A stretch of 61,989 nucleotides of DNA, counting the filler, from Platydemus manokwari (taxonomy: Eukaryota), in the NCBI GenBank assembly GCA_037951405.1. It is 5 parts of 5 records of this genome, joined end to end, with 100 filler letters (N's around TTAATTAATTAA, not from the genome) between each part and the next. Parts side by side here need not be neighbours in the genome. Positions count along the whole stretch, not along the records: positions 52,712 to 61,989 come from JBBMOY011272873.1; 4 more parts are not named here. One strand, written 5' to 3'. Both the position numbers and the translations under genes were made by a program. The notes beneath the pieces were generated by a model that worked only from the letters and a program-made list of their open reading frames with translations, had not been told where the DNA came from and did no database searches. Below are positions 3,330-61,989 of the stretch, piece by piece. The first letter of the stretch is position 1. Each line of letters starts with the position of its first letter.

Positions 3330-6300
3330 ATAGTAGAGATAAAGTTGATATATTTTCGAACTAATCCTATGAGTTAGAGTAATTTGTCGTTATGGAGGTC
3401 CCACCAATATTAATGGTATCGATATTGTTTTAATGTAAAGTTATTTGACATATTCAAAAGAAAGCGACCCACATTTCTTCAAGGTAAGAGTTTGGTGATA
3501 CGCAATTTTTCTACATGGCATAGGGGATTTTTAGGTCAATGATAAATATCTGGCATTTGTTTCTTATAATGAGATCGGTCAAGGATGATAAAGATTTCGG
3601 AAGGTGAATAGTTAATATCAATGTCGATTCCAAGATATCGTAGGTAGTTACCGCGAAGGTCAAGGACCATTGTTTGGTCTTTGACAGACATGCCAGGAAC
3701 AGCAAAGCACTAAGAGAAAACATTACCATCGGTTTCAATTTCAGTGTTGCAGCATTACAGAGTAAAGATTTTTCAGTTCCTATATGAAATAAAAAATATG
3801 TAAATAAAAGAAAATTATTACAGGTTCTTTGAGTAAAAATTAATACTTCAGGCACGACTATGAGACTTAGGAAACATTCCGAAGTCTGTCTTCCTTTTTG
3901 AAGGTTATCCATTTATAAAAGAGGTGTATTTAGATGAAGTCATGAAGAATTTCACAGCTTCAAATGGTTAATAATCGAGAAGAAATAAGTTATATCGGAG
4001 TTGACCGTAACTTTAGATTGAATTTCGGAGTCATAGTTTTGAAAGTTGATGTCGATTTCATATTTTCGAGGTTTTCTGATAGATTATCTGATTTTTGTCC
4101 GCCAAATTAAGATAGTGAAGCGTTTGATTAGGGTGACTTCTCAGTGACCAGAGGAGCAAGTTGAAGTTTTGGTAGTGGAGATAATGATGTCTTATGTTGT
4201 GTTATAAAGACTATTTAAGACCTGAAAAATATGCGAAATTTCTGGTCTTGATTGATGAGAAAGCAAAAAGCATAGGTAATGCTTTGTATACAATAAACAA
4301 GTAGTGAAGGTACAAGAGCAAGTCCTCTGAGCTTCAGTGGATAATTTAAGAAGAGCCGATTTGAGAATTTTTCAACCACACATTCTGAAAACATTTTTAG
4401 AGAATAAGAGTATCTTTTGGTGTTGTCAATGAATATGGGGAAGCATGCCGAGGAGAAAGACGTTGTGTGGATCTGTTGAATTTGGAAATGGAAAGGTAAG
4501 GGTAAATTAAGGAAGATGCTATAAGTTTGAAATTTTTGTGATGGTTGCAAACTGGATTTGAAGATTATTTCAAAGTAGTCAATAGTGAACTTATAAGAAA
4601 CCTTACAAATTCCAGAATTAAAGACGGTTAAAAAACTCCTCCTCTTGGAGCAGAACCGGTTACCATCAAGATTTTTGAGCAACAAACTCTATAATAGGAA
4701 TAAAGCAATACGGTATATAATATAGATTAGTATTTTACAGGTATGGTCTTACTTTGGATCTTCCACCAAATGCCGGGCATATACAGGAATATTGGTTTTC
4801 TGCACTAGATGGTCTTCCACAGTGCGTGAAGTTGAAAATTAAATGATGAATCTTCTCCAATTGATGTGGCTTATAAATCGTCTATGAAATCGTGGTAGCG
4901 AAAATAATGGCAGTAAAATTGTGTTCGTGTAGATTGTGATTACTACCTTATATAGGTAGTGTGAATCACTCGCAGATATTCTCTGCGATTAAATCTAATG
5001 CCAGTGAATATTTATTATTTTTATCGATAGAATTTATTCACTGATGAGAGAAATTCTCTCTTAATAAATTTATTAGACAGAAAATATCTCTCGATTAAAT
5101 TTTATTATTTTATTCTGTGACATTATTTTCATGCCCGAAAATAGATGACAATTTATTTTTCGCTGTTAATTAGCGATATCTCATTACGTCTTGATATTTT
5201 ATTAATTTATTATTTCAGAGAATTTCAACGGGTTTGTACTGGGTGGGTTTATTAATATTATTTTACGTGTATATAAACAATAATTATTATAAATACCAAT
5301 ATTTCAAAGTATTTGTTGCTCAAAATTTTCAAAAATTGTCAAAAAAATACATGCTGATTAAATAAAAATTGATAGAATAAAAAATTAATACACATTTCAT
5401 ACGTATTGCCATGCAAATGTATACACATAATTGTTCCAATGTGAATTAATCGTTATGGATTAATTGTTGGGCCAGAATCCCAACAAGTAGGCAAAAAAGT
5501 GTCATTACCCGAAGGCAGTGATGTTTGAATTCACTGTAAATAGATATGAGTGAAATTTGTAATTCATAACAACAATATGAGTTAAGTGTGAAATAATTGA
5601 TGTTATGAAGTGATGTTGATAGGAAAGTGGTGATTCTATGGACCTTGAGATGGAATCTGAGAAAGAGGAAGCAGTAAGTTTTGTGCATAAGTTACATTTG
5701 GCTGTGCGATGGTATATAAATGTTATGAAATGGGAGTTTGTTGGGTAACCAGCGTATAGTTTTGCCGAAAGGAGAGCGTGAAGAACATCCAATGCCAGAG
5801 TCGGGAGTCGGGTTTAACTTTGTCACGGCCACTGGGTTTCTAAGCGAGTATGATGACATTTGGTAGTAGTTGTGATCCTGATAAGTCAGCGCTAGATGAA
5901 AGTGAGGTTTCTGCCGTTGTTATAATGTCAACAACGTTTTGGGAGCAATTAGTAAAATTTTTGTCTCTTTATTTAAGAATAAGTATAGAAATTTTTCTAC
6001 TTAGCAAGCAAGGATTGGATAATAGATTGAGTGGTATTTGAACATGACTTACAAGCGCATGTTAATAATGTGTATGTATACAAGAGTAAGTGAAATTTAT
6101 CATTTTTAAATGGAGTAAAGAAGCTATTACAGTTAGTTTTGTCATTATCAAGAACAATTGGTCAGTCGCGAAGCAATGTGAAAGGTCAAGTTTCAATTTT
6201 GGATGAATCGGTTTCAAAATATTTGGATATAGAAGTAGGAGATGGATTGGATTATAATTGCTTTTTAATCGATGGGCATTAAAAGAGAATGTAAAATTTC

Positions 6301-11586: not shown

Positions 11587-13352
11587 ATGCTTAAAACTAT
11601 TTTAACTGGTAAGATTTATTATTTAATAAGAAAATATCTACTCTCGATTTATTTTCAGTATTTTTTCTTTTTATTTTAAACATTTCATTATCATACTCGA
11701 TTATTTCAATTATAGAAGAATCAGAAGTGAAAGCCTATTGCAATTTATCTAATCTTATCAGTTTTACAAAAGATTTTGATAACTTTATGAAACATCTACC
11801 AGCAAATGTAACAAAATTAACAATAACATGCGACAATCAAAATATATCATTAAGTTCGAAATCATTTCCGAAAAATTTATCTCTAGATTATTTGCATTTT
11901 AATGGATTTTCAATCACAATGTTACCGGATTCTTTCAAAAATTTGAACAATTTAAAATATTTGGGTTTTAGTAATTGCACATTAAGAAATTTACAAGTGA
12001 ACCCATTCGGTCAATTAAATAATTTAGTTTATCTTAACTTATCATCGAATGCAATAAATGAATATAGTGATTTATTAATACCGTTTTATTCGAAAAATAG
12101 TCAATTAAATCTTTCTAATAATAATATTTCTTTTTTAAAAGAGCACGATTATAGTTATGCATTGAAATTTGTCGATTTAATCGATATTCGCAATAATACT
12201 CTCGCTTGTAATTGTGTTAATAAATGGATTTTTAGTCATAATTTTGATAGTCGTCATTTGAAAATTGATACAAAATCATTAAATAAATGTCTTGTTTCTC
12301 ATTTCAATCATTGCGATGACAATTCCGACCGTTTCAGTGGGAAATTTTCCACCACATTTACGTACCCATTTGCTGATATTGTGCTTGAATGTCCCATCAA
12401 TCGTAGTGTACAGCAATTTGAATATTGGATCAGTCCGCATAGTGATCGGTTCGGAATAAATAATTTTAACCACACAAACATTCTCAATCATGTCAAATTC
12501 ATCATTCAACCGTTATTTATTGAGACAATGATTTCGGTGAATGAGACATCATATTCATTACACATACACAATTTTCGCGGCTATTTCCGAGGTAATTGGA
12601 CTTGTGTAGCGATCGGTTCGACTGGACGATCGATATCGACGATAATCAATGTCGGAATAAAAGTGCGTACAAAGGAAATGTTTGATTTTTCAATAACCAT
12701 AGGCTTTAGTTTTGCAGGCGCATGGTTATTGGTAGCGATCTGTTTAGGATTGATACAGTATTGTAAAGAAACATCGTGTTGTCGACATAAAATCGATTAT
12801 AACAAATCGAGTCTGTTTGAGAAACGTTACGTACAAACGGTCATACCGGTGCCGTTTGTCGATAGCATGTCCGAATCGTCATCGAATGACAGCGATGTCA
12901 ATTGTTCGAAACCGTTGAACCGAACACGATACGATTCACATAATAATGATGTTCAATTGATATTCAAAGATCAGGAATTAGCAGACGAATATGCCCAAAT
13001 GCTTTCACAATTGAAAGAAGCTAGTGAAACCGGTGATGAGAACTTTAAAGATCGTTTGACGACGCTCCGAACTCGATTCAGTATCGATTTCAACAAGATG
13101 AGATTTGAATTGAAACGAGGAATGGAATCGTTGAAGTCGAATAGTTCGGCTGCGGCACACAAATTGCGAAAGAGCGTCGGCCATATGAAAGATCATATGA
13201 AGAGTTTTACGGAATTTTGTGGAACATCATCAATGGCTCAAAGTATTTCCATAGTGGTGATATCAGAAAATCCCAACACAAACGATCCAAACCGATCCAA
13301 TTATTATCACAGTCACGAAAAGAAAGTTTTTCACTTCTTTGAACCTCTGTAA
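11587..13352 (+). CDS. Type I membrane LRR-Ig (LIG family) protein, IGLR-2/LRRN-like; 2 coding exons, 571 aa
   Basis: ATG exon 11587-11608, 50-nt intron (gtaag...ttttcag), then exon 11659-13352. This restores a signal peptide (MLKTILTVFFLFILNISLSYS) that the ORF track misses. LxxLxLxxN repeats, LRR-CT (NTLACNCVNKW), one Ig domain (VLECP...WISP...GNWTCVA), a TM helix (ITIGFSFAGAWLLVAICLGLI) and a helical cytoplasmic tail. Confidence 0.88.
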
Positions 13353-16292: not shown

Positions 16293-17465
16293 TGTTGGGG
16301 TCTTGACAGTTTTGATCCAACAATTAATTCACAGTGATTATTATTAATTATATCTTAACAACTCTTAGGACATCTGAGTGAAATAGGCTTAAAATATTAC
16401 AATATATTAGTATTTATAATAATTATTATTAATAAATATTTAAAATAATAATATTAGCAAAACCAACCTAGAACAAATCCATTGAAATTTCCTTATATAA
16501 TAAATTTATTTATAAAATAACAATACGCAATATATTATCGCTCACACAAATTCTCTCACAGAATAAAATATTCATTCGATTAAATTTAATCAGAGAGAAT
16601 ATTTCTCTGTACAATAAATTGAATCGAAAAATTTCTCTGTTCAGTAAAAAAATTCCTGTGATAAAATAATAAATTCACTGGCATTAGATTTAATCGCAAA
16701 GAATATATGCGAGTGATTCTCCACTGCTTATATAAGGTAGCAGTTACAATTAACACTGCCATTATTTTTCGAATTACTGAATACGCAGTTACACACCACA
16801 TAGATTGTCATATACGAGAGAAGATACATTATTTTGCAATTCAATCAACGTATTATAGAAGACCATCCAGTGCCGAAGAACGGGATTTCCTATGTGCCCA
16901 GTATTTTACCGGAAGGCCCCAGAGTAAGATTAGTTTGTGTAAAATACTAATATATATATATTATATGTTGTATCGTTTATCTCTTATTATCGAGTTTTCA
17001 CTCAATCACCTTGAAAGGTAAGGGTTCAGCTTCACTAGTAGGAGTGTGTTAACCATCTTTTTATCCAGGAATTGTAAAGGTTTGTTATGGGTTTTTATTT
17101 TTATTTTATTTGTCAATTAATTTGTATCGGCGTCAATTATTAATAAACATTTGTAGTGGCGAGTTTTAGTAATTTATTAAATAGTTATCAAAATAATTGT
17201 CCATTATCACTGATATCACCATAGTTAATAATTTAAATAGGTTATATAATCTGAGAGTGATAGTTAAGATAATTAAGATATAACACGATTGCCACACCTA
17301 TTATATTCATATAATAAGGTTGTACGAGGTGAAGGAACAATAAAATAAGGTAGATTACACCTGTGGCCTTAATCAAGAGGTCATGGAGACTGATTAAGAC
17401 AGTAGTAATATCAAGTAAAATTAAGATTAATAAAACAATTAAATCAATAAGGCCAGGACGTATCA
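16293..17465 (+). mobile_element. Solo LTR, family A copy 2 (Gypsy-like, 4-bp TSD)
   Basis: Starts TGTTGGGG and ends GGCCAGGACGTATCA. Flanked by AATA on both sides (16289-16292 and 17466-17469). Colinear with 50486-51746; internal TATATAAGG and AATAAA. Confidence 0.85.
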
Positions 17466-20542: not shown

Positions 20543-20642
20543 NNNNNNNNNNNNNNNNNNNNNNNNNNNNNNNNNNNNNNNNNNNNTTAATTAATTAANN
20601 NNNNNNNNNNNNNNNNNNNNNNNNNNNNNNNNNNNNNNNNNN
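20543..20642. other. Assembly gap with artificial TTAATTAATTAA spacer
   Basis: 44 N + ttaattaattaa + 44 N; the same layout recurs at 29808, 39934 and 52612. Confidence 0.95.
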
Positions 20643-23600: not shown

Positions 23601-24716
23601 TAAATCATTAACCCGTGGATATAGATTGTAAAAATCAGGGTTCCGTTTTCTGCACTAAATTCCACATTATTTTGTTCTAATTTTTAATTGTATTACTTTT
23701 CAAATCGGTATATTTAATGTTAAACCCAAGATAATCTTTCTCTTATATATGAAATAATAAGATAAACGTGTAAGTAACAATTAACAGAGAAATATTTTAA
23801 AATTTTTAATAAAATTATAAAACTAAAATCATTTATTATAATTATTAAATATTCAACAATTCAATCTCTTTACATGATCACTATAGAGTTTTCCTTGGCC
23901 ATTTCAAGTACAATATAGCCACTTCAAACACAATAAAAATATTTAATCCTATTTTAAAACTATAAAAACATTTTAATTTAGAAAATGAAATTGTTAATTC
24001 TATCTCTAATCATCTATCAATTGATATTATCAATTTATTTCTCAAAAATCTCTGATTGAGAATTTAAAATTTATGATTGATGAAAAAGGTTCACGTTTTT
24101 ATATTTTAATCTGAAATTTATTTTTCAGAATTTTAGACCGATCTTTAATAATTAACGTCATTATTCAATGATATTTTTTGAAATAAATGCAAAAGAAATT
24201 GAATCGATAATATTTATTTTAATTTTATTTACACAAATCCGTGCTATGTAATACAACCTTTTAAAATTAGTTACGCTATTATTCTTAACAGAAACCCCTA
24301 ATTTCAGTTACTTTCAAAGATCTAATTCGAACTACTTAAAAATTGGTTTTATGTTAAAGTATAAACACGCTTTTAATTCTTTTTCATATTTTCCAATTTG
24401 ATATTTTATATTTATGCTAAATTAAAACATTTCATTATATAAGCAAATTTATTTAATTTTTTTTGCAGTACTCAAATTTGTATACTTGACTCCGGTATAC
24501 GATCGCGATAAATTGTGATTGTTATTCTTTAATCATGATTTAAAACATTTTATTCTACTGATAGTTGTAAGTAGAATTTTTATGAAACTTTTAATTATGA
24601 AAGTATAACCTTTATTTTTAAAACGCTAATACTGTCAAGCTGTTCCTGTATTAGATTAAGCACCATATGGTTGAGTATTTAAAATATAAATCTTTCTGAT
24701 TATTGCTGAACAGCTT

Positions 24717-26483
24717 ATGCCTCGAATTAGTTTGAAAAAATCTTTATTTTGTTTTCCCTTTGCTGCAGGAGTAATATTATTTGTGAAATTTATATTTTAT
24801 AGTGAAACTTTTATCCTGAAACATGTAACAAATGAAGTAATTTTTGAATCACCAGAACCTCCTGCACAAGTTGATTGGGCAGATGTACAATTAATTGAAA
24901 AAGAACTTGCTAGGGTAGGACCAGGTGAACAAGGATTGGGTGTTTACCTAAATTCTAATGAAACGAATAATGTAATGAAGCTTATAAATGTTAATGGATT
25001 TAATGCAATCGTTTCTGATCGAATATCTTTTCATCGAGCAATTAACGACTTGAGAACGCCTACGTGCAAGTCTTTAAAGTATGACAAAATACTCCCTTTG
25101 GCATCAGTTATTATACCATTACATGATGAACATTGGTCGACTCTTTTAAGAACAGTTCATTCAGTTATCAATCGATCACCTCCAAGTCTCCTCAAAGAAT
25201 TAATTCTGGTAGATGATAACAGCACGAAACAGTTTCTTCATAAAGATCTCGATAAATATATTTCTGATAATTTCAAGAAAGTAAGGCTATTGCGTACTGA
25301 AAAACGAGAAGGACTTATTAGAGCCAGAATAATAGGTGCTAAATCGGCGTCTGGAGATATATTAATATTCTTAGATTCTCATTGTGAAGTAGGAATCAAC
25401 TGGTTACCAGCGCTTCTACAACCAATTAAAGATAACTATAAAACAGTTACTTGCCCATTTATCGATGTAATAAATAATGATGATTTTTCCTTACACCCTC
25501 AAGATGAAGGAGCCAGAGGTGCTTTTGATTGGGAATTGAATTATAAAAGAATCCCGCATGTACCAGTAGATAGAAACCATCCTGAACAGCCATTTGAAAG
25601 TCCAATAATGGCCGGCGGATTATTCGCAATCAGTAGACGGTGGTTCTGGGAGCTTTCTGGCTATGACGAAGGCCTGGAGGTATGGGGAGGTGAACAGTAC
25701 GAGTTATCATTCAAAATATGGATGTGCGGGGGACGGATGCTTGATATTCCTTGCTGTAGAATAGGTCATGTATATAGAAAATTTAATCCTTTTGGAGTAC
25801 CAGGTCTAGGAGATTATGTTGCTAAAAATTATAAAAGAATAGCAGAAGTATGGATGGACGAATGGAAAACATTTGTATACAAGAAAAGTCCTCAAAGATA
25901 TTCTGCTATCGGTTACGTCAACGTTACCAAACAAAAATATCTTCGAAAACGATTAAAATGCAAATCTTTTCGATGGTTTTTAGAACATGTAGCTTACGAT
26001 CTTTTGGAGAAATATCCACCCTCTGAACCAGAACCAGTATATAATGGTAAAATTATCTCTGCTGTTGATCCATCTTTATGTATTGATTCGAAATTTGGCA
26101 AGCAAGGTGACCCCTTATCAATTGATAAGTGTATGACTAAAAGAAGTAATCGTAAAAACGGAGAACAAACCTTTCAAATTACGTGGAGATTTGAAATAAG
26201 ACCTACTGGCAGACATGTATGTTTCGATTTTCCCGGTATTGGAATTACTTTGGTTCTTTATAATTGTCATGAAAGTGGTGGTAATCAAAAGTGGATATTC
26301 AATCCAAACACTCGACAAATCATTCATAGAAATTCTCATAAATGCATTGATTCAAAACCACAAAGACTGGAATTGTATATCAATGATTGCAATTCGAATG
26401 AGACCCAGAAATGGAGAATGGAAAATATCGATAAAGAAATAATACAGAACGAATGGAGAGAGAATAGTGAGAAGTTTCAGTAA
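24717..26483 (+). CDS. GALNT10: Polypeptide N-acetylgalactosaminyltransferase, GALNT10/pgant6-like; single coding exon, 588 aa
   Basis: N-terminal TM anchor. GT-A domain: SVIIP.HDEHWSTLLRTVHSV, LVDD, REGLIRAR, FLDSHCE (DxH). Gal/GalNAc-T motif: SPIMAGGLFAI...WGGEQYELSFKIWMCGG. ARGAFDW and GHVYRK are typical of the GALNT10 subgroup. C-terminal ricin-B lectin with CID/QxW repeats. Confidence 0.93.
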   Translation: MPRISLKKSLFCFPFAAGVILFVKFIFYSETFILKHVTNEVIFESPEPPAQVDWADVQLIEKELARVGPGEQGLGVYLNSNETNNVMKLINVNGFNAIVSDRISFHRAINDLRTPTCKSLKYDKILPLASVIIPLHDEHWSTLLRTVHSVINRSPPSLLKELILVDDNSTKQFLHKDLDKYISDNFKKVRLLRTEKREGLIRARIIGAKSASGDILIFLDSHCEVGINWLPALLQPIKDNYKTVTCPFIDVINNDDFSLHPQDEGARGAFDWELNYKRIPHVPVDRNHPEQPFESPIMAGGLFAISRRWFWELSGYDEGLEVWGGEQYELSFKIWMCGGRMLDIPCCRIGHVYRKFNPFGVPGLGDYVAKNYKRIAEVWMDEWKTFVYKKSPQRYSAIGYVNVTKQKYLRKRLKCKSFRWFLEHVAYDLLEKYPPSEPEPVYNGKIISAVDPSLCIDSKFGKQGDPLSIDKCMTKRSNRKNGEQTFQITWRFEIRPTGRHVCFDFPGIGITLVLYNCHESGGNQKWIFNPNTRQIIHRNSHKCIDSKPQRLELYINDCNSNETQKWRMENIDKEIIQNEWRENSEKFQ

Positions 26484-26915
26484 AAATCACTTATTTTAAA
26501 TGATCAATTGATATCGATAAAATCAAAATTTCATGTTCTTGGCTTCTTTATTTTATAATCTTTTAATTTATGATCTATATTTATCGATGGTTTTACATTA
26601 TTAAATTAAGATTATGAGCTGTCTAGCTTGTTGATCCCAAAGCGACTATTATTAATACTAAACATAAGAATTAATCTAATAATTAGAGTTAATTATATGT
26701 TAAACAAAAGTATAAATATTTTTCTTTTGATGTAATTAAATTGATTTATAATAAAATCTTTTAAAAATTATAATTTCATTTGTATTGATTTTTATTAAAA
26801 CTTATTTACAAATTTAATTTTATATTCATTAACAAGGCTGTGCTATTATTCAGTCAAGACTTTAAACTTCCAAAACCATGTAAACTTTAATTAGATATTT
26901 CTATCTAGAGAATTG

Positions 26916-28181
26916 ATGTCTTTCAATATCAAGGAGGTTGTTGACAATTATCTTTGTCCATGTCATTCTTACAGAAATCAATTGGATATGGAAATTATTG
27001 TGAAGAACAAGACCAAATTTACCCAATGCAACCAATGCTCCTACCCGTGGCCATTATTTCACTCGAAGGCTTTACGGGAATGTTTTTCCTGCAAAAGCCA
27101 TTTTAATGAAATCGTTATGGCACCTGAATCGTGTGCTATGACTGAATGCTATTTCTGCGGTGGCCAAATTCCACAGATGGTAATCATTGACCATTATCAA
27201 AAAATCGCATCACTTCATCTATCCAATAACACTGATCTACCTACTCAGAAAGTAGCTATTGCTGATCAATGTAAATCCCACAATTGGAATTATGGTTTTA
27301 TTCGAGGACAATTTGAGAAAAGCTGTAACATTTGTGGAACACACACAATCATTAATGATCATGAAGAGATCTTGTCGCATTCAACGGAGTTTTTAAATTG
27401 TTGTGATTCACCACGAACTGGATTTTCGGCTTTCAGATATTTCAATCTCATTATGCTACAGTGTAACAAGTGCCTTTCCGAAACAGTGGTGACAAAAAAT
27501 CGTACCTTTGAAGAATGGTTATCGATTGGAAAGTGGGGTGCGGGTTTTGTGGAGGTGCAGGTGATGTCCATTAATGATCTCCATGTTGGCGATCATTTGG
27601 TGTACATCAGACAACTTTATGAGCATCATGTCATTGTAGTGTGGGTAAATTATAAAGATGGACGATTTAAAGAAATTGGATTTGGTCGACCATTCAAGAG
27701 CTCTAAATGCGAAGATAAATTATCATTAGAAGGGAAAATTCGTATCTACGATGTTCTGTATAAAACCCTAGTTGATCCGATGGTGGTGATAAATTATTTA
27801 CCTCTAGATTGTTACCATTCTGGACATGTTCTTCAGCGTGCTTTCTCGAGAATTCATGAAGGGGATTATAATTTGATATCAAATAATTGTGAACATTTGG
27901 CAACTTGGTGTAAATATGGAATTTATGAGTGTATTCAGGTGAGAAAAGTTCTCGGAAAATACACTAAGCTTGGCCAAGAGTTAGTTAATACTCTTGTTAT
28001 CCCAAATGTTAAATATGTTTGTGAAAAAATAACCAAAGCAGCCAATGAAGACCAAACAGTTGCTCAAATTCACAATGTCGTTGCATCTCAACAAGAAAAT
28101 ATCAAAGAAAAATTATTTAACACTTTGAATTATATTTGTGGTGAAAAACCGATGACTAAAGAACAAGATCAACAAAAATAA
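26916..28181 (+). CDS. LRAT/NC-domain (HRASLS/PLAAT-like, permuted NlpC/P60) protein with Cys-rich N-terminal CxxC repeats
   Basis: Intact 421-aa ORF (ATG 26916). The C-terminal domain has GDHL...YEHHVIVV and RAFSRI...YNLISNNCEHLATWCKYG (NCEH catalytic motif). The N-terminal ~190 aa contain CPCH, CNQC, CFSC, CYFC, CKSH, CNIC and CNKC. Confidence 0.85.
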   Translation: MSFNIKEVVDNYLCPCHSYRNQLDMEIIVKNKTKFTQCNQCSYPWPLFHSKALRECFSCKSHFNEIVMAPESCAMTECYFCGGQIPQMVIIDHYQKIASLHLSNNTDLPTQKVAIADQCKSHNWNYGFIRGQFEKSCNICGTHTIINDHEEILSHSTEFLNCCDSPRTGFSAFRYFNLIMLQCNKCLSETVVTKNRTFEEWLSIGKWGAGFVEVQVMSINDLHVGDHLVYIRQLYEHHVIVVWVNYKDGRFKEIGFGRPFKSSKCEDKLSLEGKIRIYDVLYKTLVDPMVVINYLPLDCYHSGHVLQRAFSRIHEGDYNLISNNCEHLATWCKYGIYECIQVRKVLGKYTKLGQELVNTLVIPNVKYVCEKITKAANEDQTVAQIHNVVASQQENIKEKLFNTLNYICGEKPMTKEQDQQK

Positions 28182-47662: not shown

Positions 47663-49114
47663 ATGATTTCTACTACTGGCAATGCTTTTGATGATTTAAA
47701 AGTAAAATACTTCTAATTTTTAATATCTTAGTTAAAATCTAGGCAATTTTAACAAAAATATTTACAAGCGACAGTGAAGATATAGATATAATTTTGTCTA
47801 AATTCAAGTATTTAGATGTCTGTTATTATGTCATTGGTTATTTGACAAAAGAATTAAGTAGTCCGAAAAGTCAAGTAGGTCTGGCAGTCTAATATACTGA
47901 AATTTCATTCTTTTTGTAGACTCCTGAATTTTATCAGAAAGTCTTTAACATTTTATCGAATCTTTTAATCGATGACTCTCATATAAAATATAGCAACAAA
48001 GAAGCAAAAAGTGATTATTTGAGTTTTATTATAAAACTAACCCTTTATTAGAAAACAAAAAAATCAACATCAAAAATGTGTCACAGTTGTATAGAAAGTT
48101 ATGGTTGAAGTTTTTAAAATCTCCGGTATTTATATTTTTCATTTTAATTTTGCTTAAAATTGAAATTAAATCTTCTAAAAAAAATATATTACAACAATTT
48201 CGAATAAATTTTAAAGTCATTTAACTATTATAGATGCCAGAGCATATCAGACTGGATGCCATTTTAACATTTAGTGATGAAATTTTGGATCAAATTGATG
48301 ACCCGAGTTCATTCTGTGATGTTATGATTACATCCTTTGAGAAGAATCGTGAGTCAGGAATCATTAGTTTTAGAGGGATCTTTAAATTGATGTTGCTTAA
48401 TCAAATGTAGTAATGTTTTGTAGTTACTGAAACATTTTATTTATAATCATATAGGCATTATGAAGAGGTTTATGATGTTCTTTTTGAATATATTACCGAA
48501 GATATTTTCAAATCGCCGTATTGCGCTAGAGTTTTCGATGATCTTGATAGCATCCTCTCTTCTAGGTAATTTAAATCTCAATTATGATTGTTTTAATCGA
48601 AATATGGTAGAACTATGGTACATAGCATTGCATCAAAATTCATTAGGCGTTTGGCTGAATTGACACAATTTGGGGCTCGAACTCATCATATACCAATGCT
48701 GGTGAGACTGATTATTAACTTGTTAAAGAAACATACTGGAACACAGACATTGATCCATGATACAAATAGCCATGGAGATGAACATCATAAGAGTTTATTA
48801 GAGATTAAAGATCTTCAAAACCATTTCGATGGTGAAATTAGAACGCTTGCCCAAGAAATCAATTCCAAATTGAATGACAAAATTGACAACACAAGACCAT
48901 CGAAAAGTATTGAAAGTAAAGAAAAGGTAATTTTGGGAATGTTTTATGGGACGATTATGTGTTGATTTTTTTTAATAATATTCAATTATAGAAAATCGAC
49001 AGTAGTCGTGAAAGAATCAAGAAAGCAGTTGAATCATTAATGGGGAACAATTGCAGTTTACCAGAATTAGATCCGATTGAACATTTTGGAACATGTTCTA
49101 TGGGACTGTTTTAG
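47663..49114 (+). CDS. NOC4L: Nucleolar complex protein 4 homolog (CBF/Mak21 domain); at least 8 exons, 5' end uncertain
   Basis: Exons 47663-47701, 47743-47874, 47920-48010, 48052-48125, 48234-48406, 48455-48565, 48611-48926 and 48992-49114 join in frame (352 aa). Motifs match Noc4: KYLDVCYY, YRKLWLKFL, YEEVYDVL...IFKSPYCARVFDDLDSILSS, IASKFIRRLAEL, IINLLKKH...LIH, SLLEIKDLQNHF. Confidence 0.85.
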
Positions 49115-50190: not shown

Positions 50191-50485
50191 ATTAAATTTT
50201 CTTAACTCGTGTCAAAGTCAATCAACAACTTTTTCTGCTCAATATTTACGTTCTACAACTCTCGAAATAAGTTTCAATTTATTTTCAAAAAGAGAAATTT
50301 AGATAACAACCCACCAATCGAAACTTTGTTTACAATCACTTTTATGTGACTGATAAAATTTTATATTTCCAATTCTGATAATTGTGTCAAATAGTTTTGC
50401 CAGTTGTTATCACTTAAACCTAATTTTGAATTGTAAAATTTATATGTATTGTGTGTGTAAAATTTGTGTGTATTTTTCAAAAAAT

Positions 50486-51746
50486 TGTCAGGGTTCTGGC
50501 CCAACATTTAATCCATAACAATCAATTTATATTGGAAAAAATATGTGCGTGACAATACGTATGAAATATGTATTAATTTTTATTGTACCAATTTTTGTTT
50601 AATTAGCATGTATTTTTATGTTTCTACAACTCTTGGATTTTTTTAGCAAAAAACCGTTTAAAATATTGATATTTATAATAATTATTATTTACATATGCGT
50701 AAAATAATAATACCAATTAAATCACCAATAGCAAGAAGATCAAAATTCCCTGAAATAAATTAATTTATAAAATATTGATGCGCAATAAGATATCGCACAT
50801 TAACAGCGACAAATAAATTGTCATCTATTTTCGCGGATGAAAATCATGTCACAGATTAAAATAATCACTCGATTAAATTTAATTGAGAGATATTTGCTCT
50901 GTCTAATAAATTTATTTAGAGGGAATTTCTCTCACCAGTGAATTAATTCTATCGATAAGATAATAAATTCACTGGCATTAGATTTAATGGCTGAAAATAT
51001 CTGCGAGTGATTCACACTGTCTATATAAGGCAGTAATCACGATCAACACTGCCATATAAGAACACAATTACAATTACCCCGTAATTTCACATTTGCATCA
51101 ATTGGAAAGGATTCATCATTTAAAATTTCAATTCGACTCACTGCTGAAGATCATCTGGTGCAGAAGACCAATTCTCCTGTATATGCCCGGCATTTGCTGG
51201 AAGACCCAAAGTAAGACCATAGCTGTAAAATACTGATCGATATTACATTCATATTATCGAGTTTGTTGCTCAAAAATCTTGAAGGTAGTCAGTTTTACTG
51301 CAAGAGTGTGCAGTTTATCAACCGTCATCTTAATTCAGAAGTTGTGAGGTTCGTCTTTAGCGTAATTTGATGTATATAGTGTAGTTTTCATAATCAATCT
51401 GTAACTTTTATTTTAGTTTATGATAATCAGTTGTGTATTGGTGTCATATTTAATAAACATTTGTAGCATTAAATTTTAGTTCTTAACTATATAGGAATTG
51501 TAAAGTCAATTATTCGTAACCATTGTAATATACATAGTTAACAGTTTGAATATGCTTAAGTATTTTGGGACTGATAATTAAGTTAATTAAAATATATCAC
51601 TATTGCCACGCCTATTGTCTTCACACAATAAGGCTGTGCGAGGTGAAGAAACATCAATATAAGGTAGATGACTGATTAAGACAGTAGTGATATCAAATAA
51701 CGTTAAGCTTAGTTAAACAATAAAATTAATAAGTCCGAACGATACA
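50486..51746 (+). mobile_element. Solo LTR, family A copy 3 (Gypsy-like, 4-bp TSD)
   Basis: Starts TGTCAGGGTTCTGGCC and ends CCGAACGATACA. AAAT on both sides (50482-50485 and 51747-51750). Internal CTATATAAGG (~51021) and AATAAA. Homologous to 4595-5485 and 16293-17465. Confidence 0.87.
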
Positions 51747-52611: not shown

Positions 52612-52711
52612 NNNNNNNNNNNNNNNNNNNNNNNNNNNNNNNNNNNNNNNNNNNNTTAATTAATTAANNNNNNNNNNNNNNNNNNNNNNNNNNNNNNNNN
52701 NNNNNNNNNNN
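52612..52711. other. Assembly gap with TTAATTAATTAA spacer
   Basis: 100-bp N-run with central spacer. Confidence 0.95.
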
Positions 52712-53080
52712 ATTATGATTTAAGAAAATAATTTCTTCACTAATTTATTTTACTCCCTGAGATTAACATTAGAATCTTATGAAATTCAAAATATTGAAAG
52801 CGTTGCTGAAGTATTTGGTTTAATGAATTTTATATTACTAGATAAAGCAGATAAAGAAATCGAAAATTGATCGGTTTGATACTTGATAAAACTAAAGAAG
52901 ATCCAAATAAAGATAATAAAGGTTTTAAAACAAGGAAAGTTTTCGATAATTTAAAACGCACATCCAGATGAATATTTCCTTTCAAACAATTATTTGGATT
53001 TTTCAGAAAGTTGCAATAGATATTAGGTTTACTTTAAATAGAAACATAGAGCAAAAGGAGAAGGACAAATAACTTTGACA
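52712..53080 (+). pseudogene. Polinton-type major capsid (double jelly-roll) fragment
   Basis: ENNFFTNLFYSLRLTLESYEIQNIESVAEVFGLMNFIL, then DKTKEDPNKDNKGFKTRK and LFGF. Compare the Polinton MCP pattern NN...LF..IR..L.G.EI...N.GF..R...LFGF. Confidence 0.6.
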
Positions 53081-53189
53081 TCTTTAGAATTAAGAATGCC
53101 AAACAACCAAAATCATACAATTATAATGGAATAAACAAATCTCAATAAGGAAATAATTAATGAATTTGAAAAAATAATAAACAATATTA

Positions 53190-53515
53190 TAAAAAACAAA
53201 AAGAAGTTGGTTTTTACCTTTATTAGCGGCATCACCGACAATAATAGTGGGTTTAAGTGGTGCAGCAAAAATTGATGGGGGAATGCAACTGTTGTAAATC
53301 AAGAAAAATAAGTTAATAAAAATGATTTAGAAATTAGTAAATTAGCGGAAGAATTGAAAGAAACAAAACAAGGAAATACTGGATCTAAAGGATCTAGCAT
53401 CAATATAAATCCTAATGAAGGGTTTTATATGATTTCATAAAAATACTATATATGAAAAATTAGCATTTCTAAAATAGGTTAAAGATGAAGGAATTTATTT
53501 GCCACCATATGATAA
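53190..53515 (+). pseudogene. Polinton/adintovirus core-like protein (GGFLP / 'cupiennin'-type) fragment
   Basis: WFLPLLAASPTIIVGLSGAAKIDGG(fs)ATVVNQ ... KDEGIYLPPY. Compare GGFLP...GLSA...GG.A..VN...G.GLYL.P. Confidence 0.5.
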
Positions 53516-53574
53516 GTAAATTCTAGGTTAAAAAATTAGCAGATTTCCCTTAGAAGAAAAGTTGTAATAAGAAA

Positions 53575-54170
53575 TATAGTACATTGATAATATCTGCTGG
53601 CAAAAAATCATAATGGAGATTTATGCTTTTATTTCCCTTGAAATTAGATTAAATATTTGAATATGAAATTGGTTTAATATCGATAAGTGTTTATAATTCT
53701 ATTTATAATATAAATGGTAGTAACAATGAATTTAAATACGAGCAAAAACATCATAAAATTCCATCAGATGCACGAGAAATTCCAGACATTAATGAAAAAA
53801 TTAAAAAAAGGGTTAACCCCTTATAATTTTGATAACATAGTACAAGGAAATAAAAATAAAAATTCATTATACAATATTTATATAGAACTTGAGGAAGCAA
53901 CATTAAATGCAATGTAATGACGAAAGGAAATATAAAATTTATGAATTTAGGATCTTTATTAGGATTTGATAATAATAATATGGTATATGTTTCTGGATCT
54001 CATTTAGATGAAAATGAAATAAATATCGATGAGCTTATGTTAATAAATGTTGAATGTTCAATAACTTATGGAGAACAAATATTAATTTCTAGTATCAAAT
54101 TATATATATTTGATGATTATGGGATCTCACCAACTAAAGAAGTTTATGAATTACCTAGATAGAAATATAT
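53575..54170 (+). pseudogene. Polinton-type minor capsid (penton) pseudogene
   Basis: EYEIGLISISVYNSIYNINGSNNEFKYE..KIPSDAREIPDINEKI (fs) IELEEATL (fs) LGSLLGF...HLDENEINIDELMLINVECSITYG...ISPTKEVYELPR. This follows the penton pattern YNS..NI...NN.F.Y / IP.G.YEI.DIN / LLGF / VEC.I..G. Confidence 0.68.
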
Positions 54171-54539
54171 TGCATGTATTTTGTGATAATATTCCTTGTA
54201 GCACGCAGCGCAAAGCAAGAAGTTCTAATCTCCAGAGATTCTCAACAAGTATTCAAATTTTTCTAATTCATCACTTTCTTGTAATTGGATTGAGGATATC
54301 TCGGTTGAGGACTATCAAATATTCTAATATCAGCAAACGTGTGTTGAAAACATTTATGTTCTTTTACATTGGAAAATAAATCTGAAAAGCGATTAAACAG
54401 AAAAATAGTTCATTAATTGTTTATTTAAAATATTCTTTGAAATGTTTATTTACTGATAACAGATGAAAATAATAAAAAAAACGGAAAACTGTTTAATGTG
54501 TTGGTTTTACAGAAAGTCGATTATGAAACTGATTGAGAA

Positions 54540-55400
54540 TATGTATAAGAGAATTTTGCATGAGGTCTTCTGGTTAAAAATAAATTGAGAAATTTAAACA
54601 AAACATAGTTCGTCTGTAAATCTAAACAATTTCAATGTTTTATGAAGAAATTTTCAGTTTAAATGCATTATAAAAATTTTTTTAAAATGTTTAATTTCTA
54701 CCTTATAATTAAATAATTGTTTCAGATAGATATCATTTACGAAATATTATTTTGTGGTATATGATGGAGTTAATGCGAAGTGACTTGAAAAAGCTGATGT
54801 ATTTTTTGTGGAAAGATGAAATGAATGCACCAGAAATTGAGAAGAAGATTAACTACATGCTTGGCACCGGTACTGTGTCTGTGAAAAACTGCCAGCGAAT
54901 AATTTCAAAATTCTGTTTTGGTAATTTCGTCGATGATAGTGAAGAGCCAAGTGGACGAACATTGGTTGAAAATGACGTAGAAAAGAGGAAACAAATTTGA
55001 AAATTTCAATTTACTCCACGATAACCGTCTACCGCATACGGCACTTGTAACTCAAAATAAGTTTGTTGAGATCTGTTTTACGGCAATACTGCATCCACCC
55101 TGTTCTCCAGACCTTGGCACTTCACGCTGTTTTCTCGTATGCAAAATTCATTCCGTGGGAAAACTTATCACTCCGCTAAAGAGATTAAAGATTATTTGGA
55201 AAAAAGGTTGTTCAATTCAAAAGCTGCGGTATTCTATGAAAACCGCATAAAACAACTTCCAGAACGCTGGTAAAGTGTGTGGAACTTAAAAGTGACCATT
55301 TTCAACATTTCAGATTTACAGACGAATGATGTTTTGCTTATATTTCTCAATTTTTAAAAATATAGAAAATATCGGACAAAAATTTCGTTCCAATCCCATA
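54540..55400 (+). mobile_element. Internally deleted mariner (DD34D-type) element nested in the Polinton relic
   Basis: HTH ORF 54752-55000 (APEIEKKIN..LG..TVSVKNCQR...F..GNF..D.E.PSGR). Then HDN (55017), HPPCSPDL (55073) and IKQLPERW*. Inverted repeats 54582-54626 / 55309-55354; TA at both putative ends. Confidence 0.85.
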
Positions 55401-55849
55401 TTCTAATCAATAAATGTAGCAAATTATTTTTGTTCTAAAGTGTTACATTATTCCAATTCTAACAGTGATTGTTTATCATTTCTATGAAATTAATTTATAA
55501 ATTTATATGCTCATAATCGATTAAGTTCTCTTTTGTAAGGATTTTTTAATTTACAAAACAATTTTATTCCAATATTCGAGTACCACAGAAATTCAATTAA
55601 AATCTAAACACAGCATTGTCATATTTTTCATAAAACTCTTAACAACATAAGAAAATTTGTTTGAAATCTCAAACAAAAAATTATCTACGAGATGTCAGTT
55701 ACCAAAATACACTATCTTTAATTAGACAGAATGATAATTTCAATAAAGTTTATATTTTCAAAATTGTTTTCTTCTACCAGTTATGTATGGCTCTCTGTTG
55801 CGTATGTGTTCCTTAATGTTGATATTTATAAACATCGTTATTGATAAAT

Positions 55850-57600
55850 AAGTGCTATTTTGTAATTCTTCTTCATTTTGTTATCATGTTAATTATTGAT
55901 TATAACGGGATTTGCGAATATTTGATAGGCTGACATGTTTAATTGCTTTGTATGAGCCCATTGATTATGATGAATTATGTTACCCATTTTTCTGAATTTT
56001 AATTTTAATCTCTAACTTTACATTCAACAGTAAATTCTAAATAAATTTTCATTCATCGAAAACATTACATCATAAACGAGCCTATATAGCAATATTCTCT
56101 ACTGTTATGATTAGAAATCTTTGTTACTAATATCGATATTTGGAAAGCTTTTAACATTAACTACCAGAGAATGATTCAATTTCTAATAGCAACGCACGGT
56201 TTTTCATGACCGTTTTTGAACTTCACAACATTTATAAAATTAACGATAAGGATTTATTCGAATCCAAGCATTTATAATTATATGGCCAAGATGTAACTGA
56301 TAAATTTCTTAATACAATTGAAGAAATTAATAAAAAATTAACAGATGTAAAACATTATGTATGAGCTATAAATGATAAATGAACAAGTAACATGAAAATG
56401 AAACATGAGGATGAAATAAATTTCAAAAAATTGGTTTTAATACAAAACAGGATTGGTAACAGTGTCAGTCTACGACCATAACATTGGAAAATATTGAAGT
56501 GCCTCAAGGAACAATTGTAATTTAAATAATAAATAACAACGTTTTATCTTCATTCTTTCCTATTTTCGTATTGAAAGCAATTATTATTTACATTTTTACT
56601 GAAATCAATAAAATTTTCCAAATATATAAAAGAGAGGTAGAACTCTTTTACAGATGAAAAATATTAAATGTTTTAAACATAATAATTTAAAAATATTTTG
56701 TAATTATTATACTTAATCTTATTTGATTTATAAATCTCACAGACATAAAATACAGATATCCACAGGTGATTATATTTGATGGGATTTTAATGAGTCTGAT
56801 GAAATACAAAATATAAAAGCATTATTTACCAGTGATAAATTTTATTCTAAATAAACTGAAAAAGTTGTAAGTGAATAAGAATATCAATTAGAGTATCAAA
56901 ATTATATTGATCGGAAATTTAAATATTTTAAAGAATTTATGATTGATTATATGAAATTAGATATTTTGATATTATGAAATTATTTGGTCAATATGCAAGA
57001 TATCAGTGTAGATATTTATATTTGAGGACATTATTTATATAGACTTTGTGTCTTTTATACTATTCGATACCTGATGATTGTTATTTCTATACATGACTGA
57101 GATGAAAAAAATATCCAATGTGGAAGTATTATATACATTATAGTGATTGTAATAGTTTATAAAATGAATATTATTTAGATGAACATGAAACTTTAAATAA
57201 TGTATAAAACGAAATATTTTAATTTAAAGATGGAAAACCTTCAGCAAAATTTAACTGATTCCAGACAATATTGTGTTTAATAAGAAAATCAAACACAGCT
57301 CATTGAATTCTTATCAGTTAGTTGCTCAGAAAATGTGGGATTATTAAAAGAAATTTAAAAGCAAAACACCATAAATTTGCTGCATATATTAAAATTTTGA
57401 ATGGTGTTCAAGAAATGAAGATTGTTAACATGGTGTAATCAGAAGAAATACAAATGATAAACTAAAACAAATCGATAATTGATAAAGAAACCATGACGTG
57501 CATCAAAGCCAGAAATCAGCACATATCTAAATCTTTAAGAGTTTATGCTTTCAACGAGAAGGATCATAGCTATTGAAGGAACATAAAATTGAGCAAATAC
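55850..57600 (+). pseudogene. Protein-primed family B DNA polymerase pseudogene (Polinton type)
   Basis: YGQDVTDKFLNTIEEINKKL (~56280). DHNIGKY*SASRNNCNLN (56474; cf. DH.TGKYRGAAH..CNL). DKFYSK*TEKVVSE*EY (~56835). KEFMIDYMKLDILIL (~56930). ENVGLLKE (~57330). MTCIKARNQHISK...AFNEK (~57493; cf. IRS..H...LS..DDKR). Confidence 0.7.
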
Positions 57601-57749
57601 AATAAGTTGTAATAGATGTTAACATCAAGAATAACATTTAAAGAACTACTATATGAAATTTTCAAAGTATAATCAGTATAAGCTTGGATATCAAGAACAC
57701 ACACAATCAATGTGAGTTGGAGATGTCGAAATGAGTGATAACAGTTTCA

Positions 57750-59230
57750 GAAACTTACAAATAAATTTAGATTAAACAGCTAAATAGAATACTAAAACTT
57801 AAAAGTTGTAATTTCAGAAGAATGTGTAGATTAAACTCAATATGATAGGTCTACACTCATCAGAATTGTGTAAGCATAAATAGTAATATTAGGATGTACA
57901 ATATAAGTAGAACGTATTATAATAATACAATACGCACACATGATTATTAAAACTATTATTGAATATAAATTATCAGTAAAATGATAATAAAATACAAATA
58001 ATAATAAAAGTTATAAGTTTTGTAACTAAAATTAATGCATAAGTTTATAAAGAAGGAATTGAGAAGGAGAAAGAAACGGCGATAAATGCTAAAAGAATGT
58101 AGCATGGTTAGATAAAATATAATAAAGCGTTTGTTAGACACAGATGGAGGAAAGAAAGTTATTAAGATAACTGGAGTATATTAAAATATAAAATACTGAA
58201 AAACGTTTGCGTTGTGCAGATAATAATAAAATAAGTAATATTTGTAATGTAGCATTAAAAAGATCAGCAGGAATAAAGCAAATAATTTATATTTTATTGT
58301 GAATTGAATTCAATAATAATAGAGCGAATAAACCCTGAATGCTACAGTACAAAATAAAATTAACATCAGTCCACTAGAAGTCATATTTGCTAAATCACAT
58401 ATAGATCAAAGCAGCGTGCCAATGGTTAAGTGGATATATAGGAAATGAAAGAAGCCTTACTGATAAACATAAGAAATAATAAAGCAGAAATTTAAGTCAG
58501 TTGATAAATTAATGCTGAAAAATTATATATTGGTTATTGTGAGACTTGACCTTATTTTAATTAGTAGTTATATTTAATATATTTACCGTATCTTCTATAT
58601 TAGGTATTGGAATCGCTTGTCCTGCTATTAAATTTAACTATCTGAAATGAAAACACAATCTAATATTTTTCTTTTTATCTTCCAAATAAAAACAAGTGGA
58701 GTATTCGATGACAGGTTTTATTCTCTTATGATGTAATTTTCCACGCATTCTTGTTTGCTTCATCTTTCTTTAATTCCAGAGTTCACAGGTTGCCTCTATA
58801 GATTGATATTCATTGGATTATATCATTCGTTATAATTTTGTGTCTCACTAATTTTATACAGCCAATAATCAGCCATGAATACATTCCTGTTATTATTAAT
58901 AATATCAGGTAACCAATAATCTTCCTTTAGTTTCAGACATTATTTACATTTCTCAAATCTGACTTCATTATTATTGATCTTTCTTAATTCAGCTGTTATC
59001 TCGCAAATGAATATGCATCTTTCTTTTTCTTTATACATTTTTTTATTTAAAAATTTCTTGTTCCAGAATAACTTTATTCCAAATATTCTTTGAAATTTAA
59101 TTGCAGGCTACGATTTGTTAAGATATGATTTAGACAGCTCCAAATGTTACCTTGTTTGTTTGTATTCCCACTTCAATCTTAGTCAATCCCTGACCACGTG
59201 AGTCCGTGTAGCCAAATATATATCAAAATG
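57750..59230. mobile_element. Probable LINE/RTE-like reverse transcriptase scraps (+ at ~57.75-58.5 kb, - at ~58.6-59.2 kb)
   Basis: Strand-skewed, broken coding-like sequence with only faint RT-like motifs. Confidence 0.22.
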
Positions 59231-61989
59231 AATTTTCAGCTCTATTGTTATTCTAATTATTTATGACTGCGGAGATATGAATGAAAAATCAATAATACAC
59301 AATAAAATGATTTATTGGTTTAAAATTTTTTATTATGAGTTTAAATCAAATATATTCGCAGAACCATTTCTTCAAATGGAGTTTATATAATCTAATATCA
59401 TGAAATCTTTGAGAGCACATGAGGAAGCGATAAAATAATTATGTAAACTACCACTATTTTAAAAAGGACATATCGAAACGAATTGAAACGCCAAGACACA
59501 AAATTATATTTTATTACAATTTAATTTATGAAATTGAAATCGAAAATATTTCAGAAATCCTCACGTGCCACTTTATTAATTCATTGAAATTTAAAGAGTT
59601 CAAAATGACAAACAATATGACAAGAAATAACTCAGAGGTGGTGTTGTCAGTTGTAACATTAAACATGCTCTTTGTTTGCAAAAAGCATGTTTTGAATTTC
59701 TTGATTTTTTTTGCGGATATTTTAGAATTTTAAGAAAATAAAATATTCTGGGGATTGCAGTGCCTTAATGAGACAATTTCAGCATTTAAATGGTACATTA
59801 TAAGCAGTCTGTTATGGAGTATAAATCAATTATCGAGTTGGAATTCAGTTTATTTAATGACAATTTGATTTAAAATATTTATTTAGTATTAAAGCCAGTT
59901 ACATATTGTCAGTAGATAATTTTTAAAATATTTTTAAAAATTAATTAATAGCCTCATTAAAAATAAAAATATTTTTTAGTATTATCAGTAGATAAATTTA
60001 GAAATTAATGATATTGTATTAATAGCCCTATTAAAAATAATAATATAATCAATAATAATATTATGTTTTCATCCTTATTTCATATCACAATTGCCTTTAT
60101 TAATGCTTAAGTATGTCGATATAAAACAGACGAATATAAAAAAAATATTGAATTTATAAAAAATTTTTAATGATCTATTCAATAATATTTATAAAGATTT
60201 TCTCGTTGTCACAGGCAATGACTTCAGAAATCTATATTTATGAAGTTGTTTATAATCATTAATTAAATATTATCGTCATCATTACGCTATGCATCGATAA
60301 TAATTACACCAACGTTTGCATTTCTTATTCGAATTTAATTTTCAAAATTTTACATCTCATATTTCATTGAATTTATTGGAACCTGTTCTTATATTTTCTA
60401 AATACTGGCTTGTTAAACAAGGAGGGAAAAGGTTTTGGTATTTGCATGTCACAGAATGTTAAATAATCAATATTTATCCATTATTTTTACATAAAAATTA
60501 GTGTTTCCTAGGGTTCGATTAATAACGGAGATTGTGAAATTACTATCATTCGGCAGACACTAACGAGACTATTGGTGCTTATTGCTATTTCTAACAATGA
60601 TATGATTTTTGTATGATTTTCTATTCTCGTAATCTAAGGTGTCTAATAGGGACAAAGCATAGTTTTTAAACCAAGTTCCTTTTATAATCACAACACTTCT
60701 ATCTGATTATTTGAATTTATAAATTTAATTTTTTTAAATTATAAATCAAGTCTGTTAACTACAGACATGCTTGATAACATTATTGCTTATTTTTATAAAA
60801 TAATTGCGAAAATATCGAGTATTTCTTAATTTGTTTCTGACATTAAAGGGGCTCTCACTAATTTTCAATAAATTGGAATTCGATCTACTTTTTTAATTTT
60901 TTCAAATAATCAAATTTTAGGAGATTTTGAAACTCTAGTCTATTTAATATTTGATTTCAAACAATTAAAATTCTTCTTAAGTACTTAAATAAAAAATTCA
61001 AAATATTTTTAATCAATATGATTAAATTAACTAAATAGAATTTTGCAATACACTCAACAAATTTTAAATTTTATTTTAGAACTTCTTTCCTTAACTTTAA
61101 CCAATAATTGTGGTAAACATTTTGTTTATGGAGTATTTTAAAATTAAGTATATGCTTGATCAAAATTCAAGAAACATCTCTCTTGAAACTCAAACGGATA
61201 ATTATTTATTTTTTATATTGAAATTGTGTTGTATTAAAATATTGAACTTGAAATCGAACAATTAAGACCGTTATTAACAATTACAACTCATTAGTGTCGA
61301 TAAAACTATAACAATATAATCAATAACAGTTTAAACCACAGTAATTTTTAAAAATATTTTTCAAACCCAGTTTTGAATAAAAATCTCCAGCAATTAGGAC
61401 AAATCGATTCGATTATAAAAACCAAAAATTATTTCCATTGGTAAAACCCATAAAGTATTTTATTATTCATACATGCTACTATTAATTATCAATAGATAAT
61501 TTTGCAAATACTAATTAGCATGAATTTACAAACCTATAACAAATTCAAACAATGGTCAGAGTTAAATTAAATTAAATATGGTCAAATTAAGAAAAGGGGT
61601 TCCTTTGACATAATTTTAATGTAGTTGTTTTTCGTGTAATATTTATTTGAAAATTTTTTTTATAATGATATTTTTTTCATATCTTGACTTAAAATTCAAT
61701 TTTGGATAAAACAATTAAAATCGCTAAATTCTAATAGAAAAACAACACTCACTAATTAATATCGATTCAGTCGTTTGAGTATAAATGTCTCGGTTATCTT
61801 GATTGTTACACCTGAACTTTGAAATAGAAAAGAGAAGATATCAAGAGTAAAAAGACAACTCGTTTCCATCAATGTTTTATTATATTTTTAAAATTACACC
61901 GTTTGTTTTTTTTAATATTTAAACAAATCTCATTTTTTATCTAACTTCCCCCTCCCGTTGTTTTTGAGATCCTTTTTAGCCACTCAATT

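Follow-up and report, generated by a model that had tools for sequence, protein, structure and literature searches.

A heavily decayed Polinton/Maverick remnant, split by a mariner transposon, in a Platydemus manokwari genome assembly

Introduction

Does the genome assembly of Platydemus manokwari (GCA_037951405.1) preserve the remains of a virion-encoding Polinton/Maverick element, and how much of such an element is left? The question is raised by one end of an AT-rich, 61,989-nt stretch of this assembly, hereafter the window, along which all positions below are counted. Positions 52712-61989 of the window (JBBMOY011272873.1) form one gap-free piece. A first-pass annotation, made from the sequence alone, had placed there, on one strand and in this order, a major capsid fragment, a GGFLP-type core protein (pX), a penton, a mariner insertion and a family B polymerase, and had traced them to a Polinton or adintovirus. 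All of these pieces are present in that order, all of them except the mariner score above shuffled controls, and profiles of natural relatives support the proposed origin for every gene named. The fossil is thus a real, heavily decayed Polinton/Maverick remnant from a virion-encoding element; it is itself not intact, and its integrase and ends were not found.

Polintons and Mavericks, for which parts of PMC4028283 and PMC8097293 served as sources, share with the window a double-jelly-roll capsid, a penton, an adenovirus-like protease and a protein-primed polymerase B. Among vertebrate Mavericks, too, most copies are decayed: they carry stops, frameshifts and insertions and show no terminal repeats; the parts of PMC8097293 used here report 3,511 loci, of which 96% are degraded. 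Decayed relics of this sort are likewise described in the corresponding parts of PMC8502044 and PMC8097293.

Results and Discussion

Virion gene remnants

The penton (minor capsid protein, single-jelly-roll) has left a remnant at 53566-54075 on the plus strand, covering positions 12-180 of a 251-position profile and scoring 97.7 bits against a shuffle maximum of 20.7 (0/200 shuffles). Here and below, profiles were built from relatives, the window was aligned to them with tolerance for frameshifts, and 6-base-block shuffles served as controls. One frame, 53641-57240, was used as phmmer query against 1.84 billion proteins (E <= 0.001). It gave 26 matches, every one of them within the first 176 residues of the query, which are penton (best E 4e-14). 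These relatives are mostly ~245 residues long, and none of ten scanned has a Pfam match above cut-off. By tblastn 60 of the 62 fetched proteins match the window penton, and a model of the relative P0002 (pLDDT 91) has the mavirus penton 6g41 as its best fold match (E 1.5e-9), followed by adenovirus penton bases. Given the phmmer relatives, the tblastn matches and the mavirus-penton fold, the identity of the penton is secure. A word-based protein search and a viral-contig scan with the window penton returned nothing. Apart from one short excursion the remnant keeps largely to a single frame, which stops interrupt, and most of its last third is gone.

To the left, 52724-53101 on the plus strand carries a remnant of the double-jelly-roll major capsid protein (profile positions 83-228 of 433), which scores 39.6 bits against a shuffle maximum of 21.5 (0/200 shuffles). 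The best capsid match is the protein of the relative locus L002, which aligns by tblastn at 52724-53007 (E 1e-7, 43% over 46 amino acids) and belongs to Pfam PF21738 (E 4.5e-28). The capsid start is lost in a gap, and the second half of the gene is absent before the next one, a pX-like core protein with a GG-FLPLL motif at 53211-53386 (plus strand). The pX remnant, with one frameshift and one stop in its aligned part, reaches 24.8 bits against a shuffle maximum of 18.9 (0/200 shuffles, and 0/100 in a second run). The pX-like relative from L002 matches Adeno_PX (PF05829) with E 9e-4, under the curated cut-off.

Directly after the truncated penton, 19 codons at 54097-54153 (plus strand) form a scrap of an adenain-like cysteine protease with the motif FD.YG..P. 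It scores 24.4 bits, a value reached by 0/300 shuffles, and the catalytic residues lie outside the scrap. The first-pass annotation had reported no protease, and on this point it has to be corrected. Read as a penton tail, the same codons score 14.3 bits, which 23/200 shuffles reach. Of the protease relatives, L026 matches Peptidase_C5 with E 0.009, under cut-off, and L001 and L008 match nothing. In the loci L001 and L004 the protease also follows the penton, an order that fits the likely reading of the penton-protease junction as a deletion joint. Within 54085-54153, a short D..G word at the joint suits the penton tail as well as the protease motif. The deletion here may have used similar sequence in the penton and protease genes.

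The mariner insertion

To the right of the protease scrap, a mariner transposon, internally shortened and broken, occupies 54582-55353 (plus strand). It is recognised by 45-base terminal inverted repeats (54582-54626 and 55309-55353, 89% alike) together with a Pfam match to HTH_48 (Mos1) of E 3.6e-4, under cut-off, and not by shuffle controls. No clear target-site duplication was seen at its ends. The stretches 54160-54580 and 55355-56280 match neither the first half of the polymerase profile nor, beyond short AT-rich matches, the rest of the window.

The polymerase remnant

Beyond the mariner, the firm part of a protein-primed family B polymerase lies at 56284-56974 on the plus strand (profile positions 493-580 and 699-751 of 1237). 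It comprises an endonuclease-VII-like DH..GKY......CNL region and a later stretch of the exonuclease domain. Both of its blocks, 56284-56557 (31.4 bits) and 56816-56974 (26.7 bits), were tested in place, and 0/200 shuffles reached either score; the DH..GKY......CNL motif falls within the block 56444-56557. A weaker part at 57130-57447 (plus strand), with the motif A region and a C-terminal stretch, has a score that 4/200 shuffles reach, and 55360-56283 is at chance (57/200 shuffles), with no signal from the first 492 profile positions. The ~1.7 kb of polymerase claimed at first is therefore an overstatement, as only the two blocks named are firm. As a colinear chain the polymerase scores 57.8 bits, against a maximum of 31.2 in shuffles (0/150) and of 39.0 in 38 host tiles, and by tblastx the remnant matches L022 with E 8e-4. 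A search for the polymerase motifs B and C found neither (15.3 bits against a shuffle mean of 15.3); if the weaker downstream blocks are right, there is room for ~50 bases where 235 codons would be expected. A block at 55864-55890 was discarded as chance (37/100 shuffles), and the last block of the chain, at 58043-58099, was dropped with it.

The polymerase profile was made from 42 sequences, including about one in four of 120 listed relatives. According to a model of the L008 polymerase (pLDDT 89.5), which folds like phi29 polymerase (E 4e-17; other family B polymerases ~4e-7 or weaker), the polymerase family of the relatives is protein-primed. A PDB sequence search and PHROGs, both applied to intact polymerases, named no polymerase; the fold search did. 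Plain tblastn with the intact polymerases of L008 and L009 missed the window remnant (E 0.02). A match to DNA_pol_B_2 (PF03175) is found in none of three intact relatives, all three of which match Endonuclease_7, and PF03175 is carried by one of the 120 listed relatives of the L008 polymerase. Failure to match DNA_pol_B_2 had been put forward as the result that would overturn the viral assignment. This test was ill-posed: since the polymerase class is mostly without that match, it would wrongly reject a true finding. A Pfam search of single frames of the window with X at stops likewise gave no capsid or polymerase family, and only the helix-turn-helix of the mariner under cut-off. Neither the penton nor this type of polymerase has a matching family, and Pfam scans therefore miss this class of elements altogether.

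Decay of the element

Capsid, pX, penton, protease and polymerase are all broken or truncated. The first-pass annotation had called all the pieces frameshifted; the penton departs from this, as described above. The aligned blocks contain 9 stops in 506 codons, seven of them TAA, in addition to frameshifts and truncations, and the remnants span fewer bases than in the relatives (capsid 378 against 438 expected, polymerase 1584 against 2208). In simulations, neutral change of 5% yields 1.2% stops and of 10% yields 2.4%. This puts the decay of the copy at roughly 5-10% or more; the figure is a minimum, as the blocks were chosen by alignment.

Breaks of this kind might also be short spliceosomal introns or recoded stops in an element that is still alive, as host introns measure ~45-65 bases by eye and TAA prevails among the stops. 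We see practically no chance of this. The stops fall within aligned blocks, no gene exceeds its relatives in length and most fall short of them, and three of three long host reading frames end in TAA without an internal stop; on these grounds introns and stop recoding were rejected. Instead of the open reading frames of an intact virion-forming element, the core genes show the damage described above. In its present state the remnant could yield no virion and no functional polymerase.

A probable single integrated element

Between 52.7 and 57.5 kb, five Polinton/Maverick genes have thus left pieces on one strand, and the mariner divides the set. The pieces very probably derive from one element that integrated into the germ line and decayed without selection. 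The homology and order of the pieces, their stops and frameshifts, the shrunken spacing and the mariner are observed; integration in the host germ line is likely. Judged by its family, the ancestor would have been an element of ~15-20 kb that was copied by its own protein-primed polymerase, was inserted by an rve integrase and encoded a double-jelly-roll major capsid, a penton, pX, a maturation protease and a packaging ATPase. The anatomy of the remnant suggests that point changes and deletions followed insertion. Through them the capsid gene would have lost its second half, the penton would have come to abut the middle part of the protease gene, and the polymerase motifs B and C would likely have disappeared. 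The mariner would then have entered the element and decayed in turn.

Several observations weigh against descent from a single integrated element. The relatives behind the profiles were gathered with the window penton and with a polymerase motif pattern, and the scoring covers this one family. The best single polymerase block, at 27.6 bits, barely exceeds the maxima of 60 shuffles (26.6) and 22 host tiles (26.9). Profiles of integrase, ATPase, PZ-like and other accessory proteins stayed at chance level on both strands throughout the window. The right flank has no inverted match to any sequence left of the gap, the left end itself being unseen, and no 6-base target-site duplication was found. 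No host gene was found in 52712-61989, a piece that meets the host genes solely across a scaffold gap, and the gene order of the window agrees with that of none of 16 mapped relative loci.

The last of these points would be expected if the genes on the two sides of the mariner, those for the virion on its left and that for the polymerase on its right, stemmed from two Polinton insertions or from one rearranged copy. The protease scrap is separated from the first firm polymerase block by ~2.1 kb that are mariner or unassigned, and no relative locus examined joins this penton clade to a polymerase. We nevertheless regard two insertions or a rearranged copy as quite improbable, as the pieces all lie on one strand and agree in base composition; moreover, gene order varies widely among the relative loci themselves, with the polymerase adjoining the protease in L008 and L018.

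The remnant runs at its left into a gap, 52612-52711, which consists of 100 bases with two N runs around a 12-base spacer and follows a TTA microsatellite; for this reason the left part of the element is unseen. Gaps of the same form occur at 20543, 29808 and 39934. A start at such a gap, together with the lack of a host gene up to the window end, would suit DNA of another organism, whether a co-sequenced host, prey or a contaminant, that a scaffolding error brought in. In G+C content, by contrast, the remnant (0.25) is close to the remainder of the window (0.28), with 0.245-0.248 in the Polinton pieces and an equal 0.249 in the right flank, and we hold a foreign origin to be very improbable.

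Compared with Polintons and Mavericks, the single decayed element that we favour keeps ~4.7 kb, mariner included, in which integrase, ATPase, PZ, terminal repeats and a 6-base duplication are not seen. The first-pass annotation had likewise seen no integrase, packaging ATPase or terminal inverted repeats. Profile and repeat searches agree with it, at a sensitivity that is weak for such decay. The best rve integrase score in the whole window is 21.9 bits and lies within a host gene, and a control decayed by 30% scores only ~17; for the packaging ATPase no score exceeds chance, in a search that usually recovers a control at 30% decay (mean 32 bits) and not at 40%. As these controls sink to chance at 30% and 40% decay, respectively, the absence of the two genes is weakly supported. 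The end motifs (AG)n and (AGT)n each occur 9-16 times, dispersed along the window. An undetected integrase would also fit a Polinton-like virus or mid-size DNA virus that lacks rve integrase and entered the genome through chance repair. This origin appears extremely improbable: rve is present in L002, of the same penton clade, and in most polymerase loci of sufficient length to include it, the power to detect an integrase drops at 30% decay, and the left end lies in the gap.

Relatives of the fossil

The penton alignment retrieved six metagenome loci, and a degenerate polymerase-motif pattern retrieved further ones, 20 of which encode one polymerase family. All 18 motif matches in a prokaryote genome collection (L010-L027) encode Polinton-type polymerases, several of them beside integrase or capsid genes; the contigs are likely eukaryotic and would have entered metagenome-assembled genomes through binning. 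On L002 there are genes for an rve integrase, a double-jelly-roll capsid, a pX-like protein, a packaging ATPase and a penton, with the capsid gene on the opposite strand and ATPase and PZ between pX and penton. At 61-2075 of this locus the integrase is fused behind a phospholipase A2-like domain, and next to it, on the other strand, a 201-residue frame without a Pfam match looks HNH nuclease-like by eye. No confirmed relative came from viral-contig scans with the penton alignment A3, the L002 integrase and the L002 capsid or from a scan of genome contigs with A3, and blastn against phages gave nothing.

In a penton tree of 55 rows, from a sample seeded by the window penton and without eight near-duplicate proteins, the fossil groups first with P0001 as its sister (100/94) and next with P0003 (97/92), inside a 30-row group with L001-L003. 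The fossil thus has its penton clade in common with P0001, P0003 and the AT-rich Polinton contigs L001-L003. Unlike the fossil, the loci L001-L004 keep open frames; amino-acid identity between the fossil and these relatives, P0001 and P0003 included, is ~30-60%.

With Beta adintoviruses the window shares a pX-like core gene, an animal-type host and, as seen in the intact relatives, a polymerase outside the pfam03175 type. In the parts of PMC8502044 used here, the Beta adintovirus polymerase is <30% identical to that type and is binned with Polinton group 1. Based on this class definition, and on intact relatives that match Endonuclease_7 and not DNA_pol_B_2, the fossil likely belongs to the Beta adintovirus/Polinton group 1 polymerase class, a placement made through intact relatives and not through named reference viruses. 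In contrast to Beta adintoviruses, an N-terminal OTU region is not seen in the window, where the corresponding first 492 profile positions are those at chance level. The Maverick/adintovirus relics on human chromosomes 7 and 8, as far as the parts of PMC8502044 and PMC9683012 used here describe them, are likewise highly disrupted and were recognised only through intact relatives; they were dated by orthology, whereas the window fossil has no known orthologue.

At its plainest, the fossil is one more dead copy of a family found across animals, in which decayed Mavericks are common and well described. If the host lineage is one without a recorded Polinton, it would widen the range of the element and tie a clade seen only in assemblies to an animal. 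Polinton polymerases of one other class occur in 30 phyla, according to the parts of PMC10748475 used here. A further-reaching interpretation, namely an undescribed Polinton lineage (seen only in P0001, P0003 and L001-L003) in a small-genome animal group without reported Polintons, with intact capsid-encoding copies persisting, is in our judgement rather unlikely.

Other features of the window

Elsewhere the window is compact, has ~27% G+C and carries animal-type genes. These include an SR-type splicing factor (1000-2352), a leucine-rich-repeat membrane protein (11613-13352), a GalNAc transferase (24690-26483) and a CBF/Mak21 gene (47900-49100). Two of the host genes are single long frames; introns elsewhere are of the short length given above. 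An Rfam search gave no match, and an exact look-up of three host reading frames found none of them in the collection searched. Among public sequencing runs, one contains 77% of the words sampled; it may itself be where the sequence comes from and thus lends no independent support, and no RNA run was listed as containing them. A dispersed repeat of 0.9-1.2 kb is present in three copies (4593-5486, 16401-17454 and 50485-51736), which are 65-77% alike, one of them inverted; short internal hairpins were found in it, and no terminal inverted repeats. It is likely an old host transposon. An open frame of 428 codons at 26895-28181 encodes an LRAT/NC domain (Pfam E 3.5e-11), preceded by a long cysteine-rich N-terminal part.

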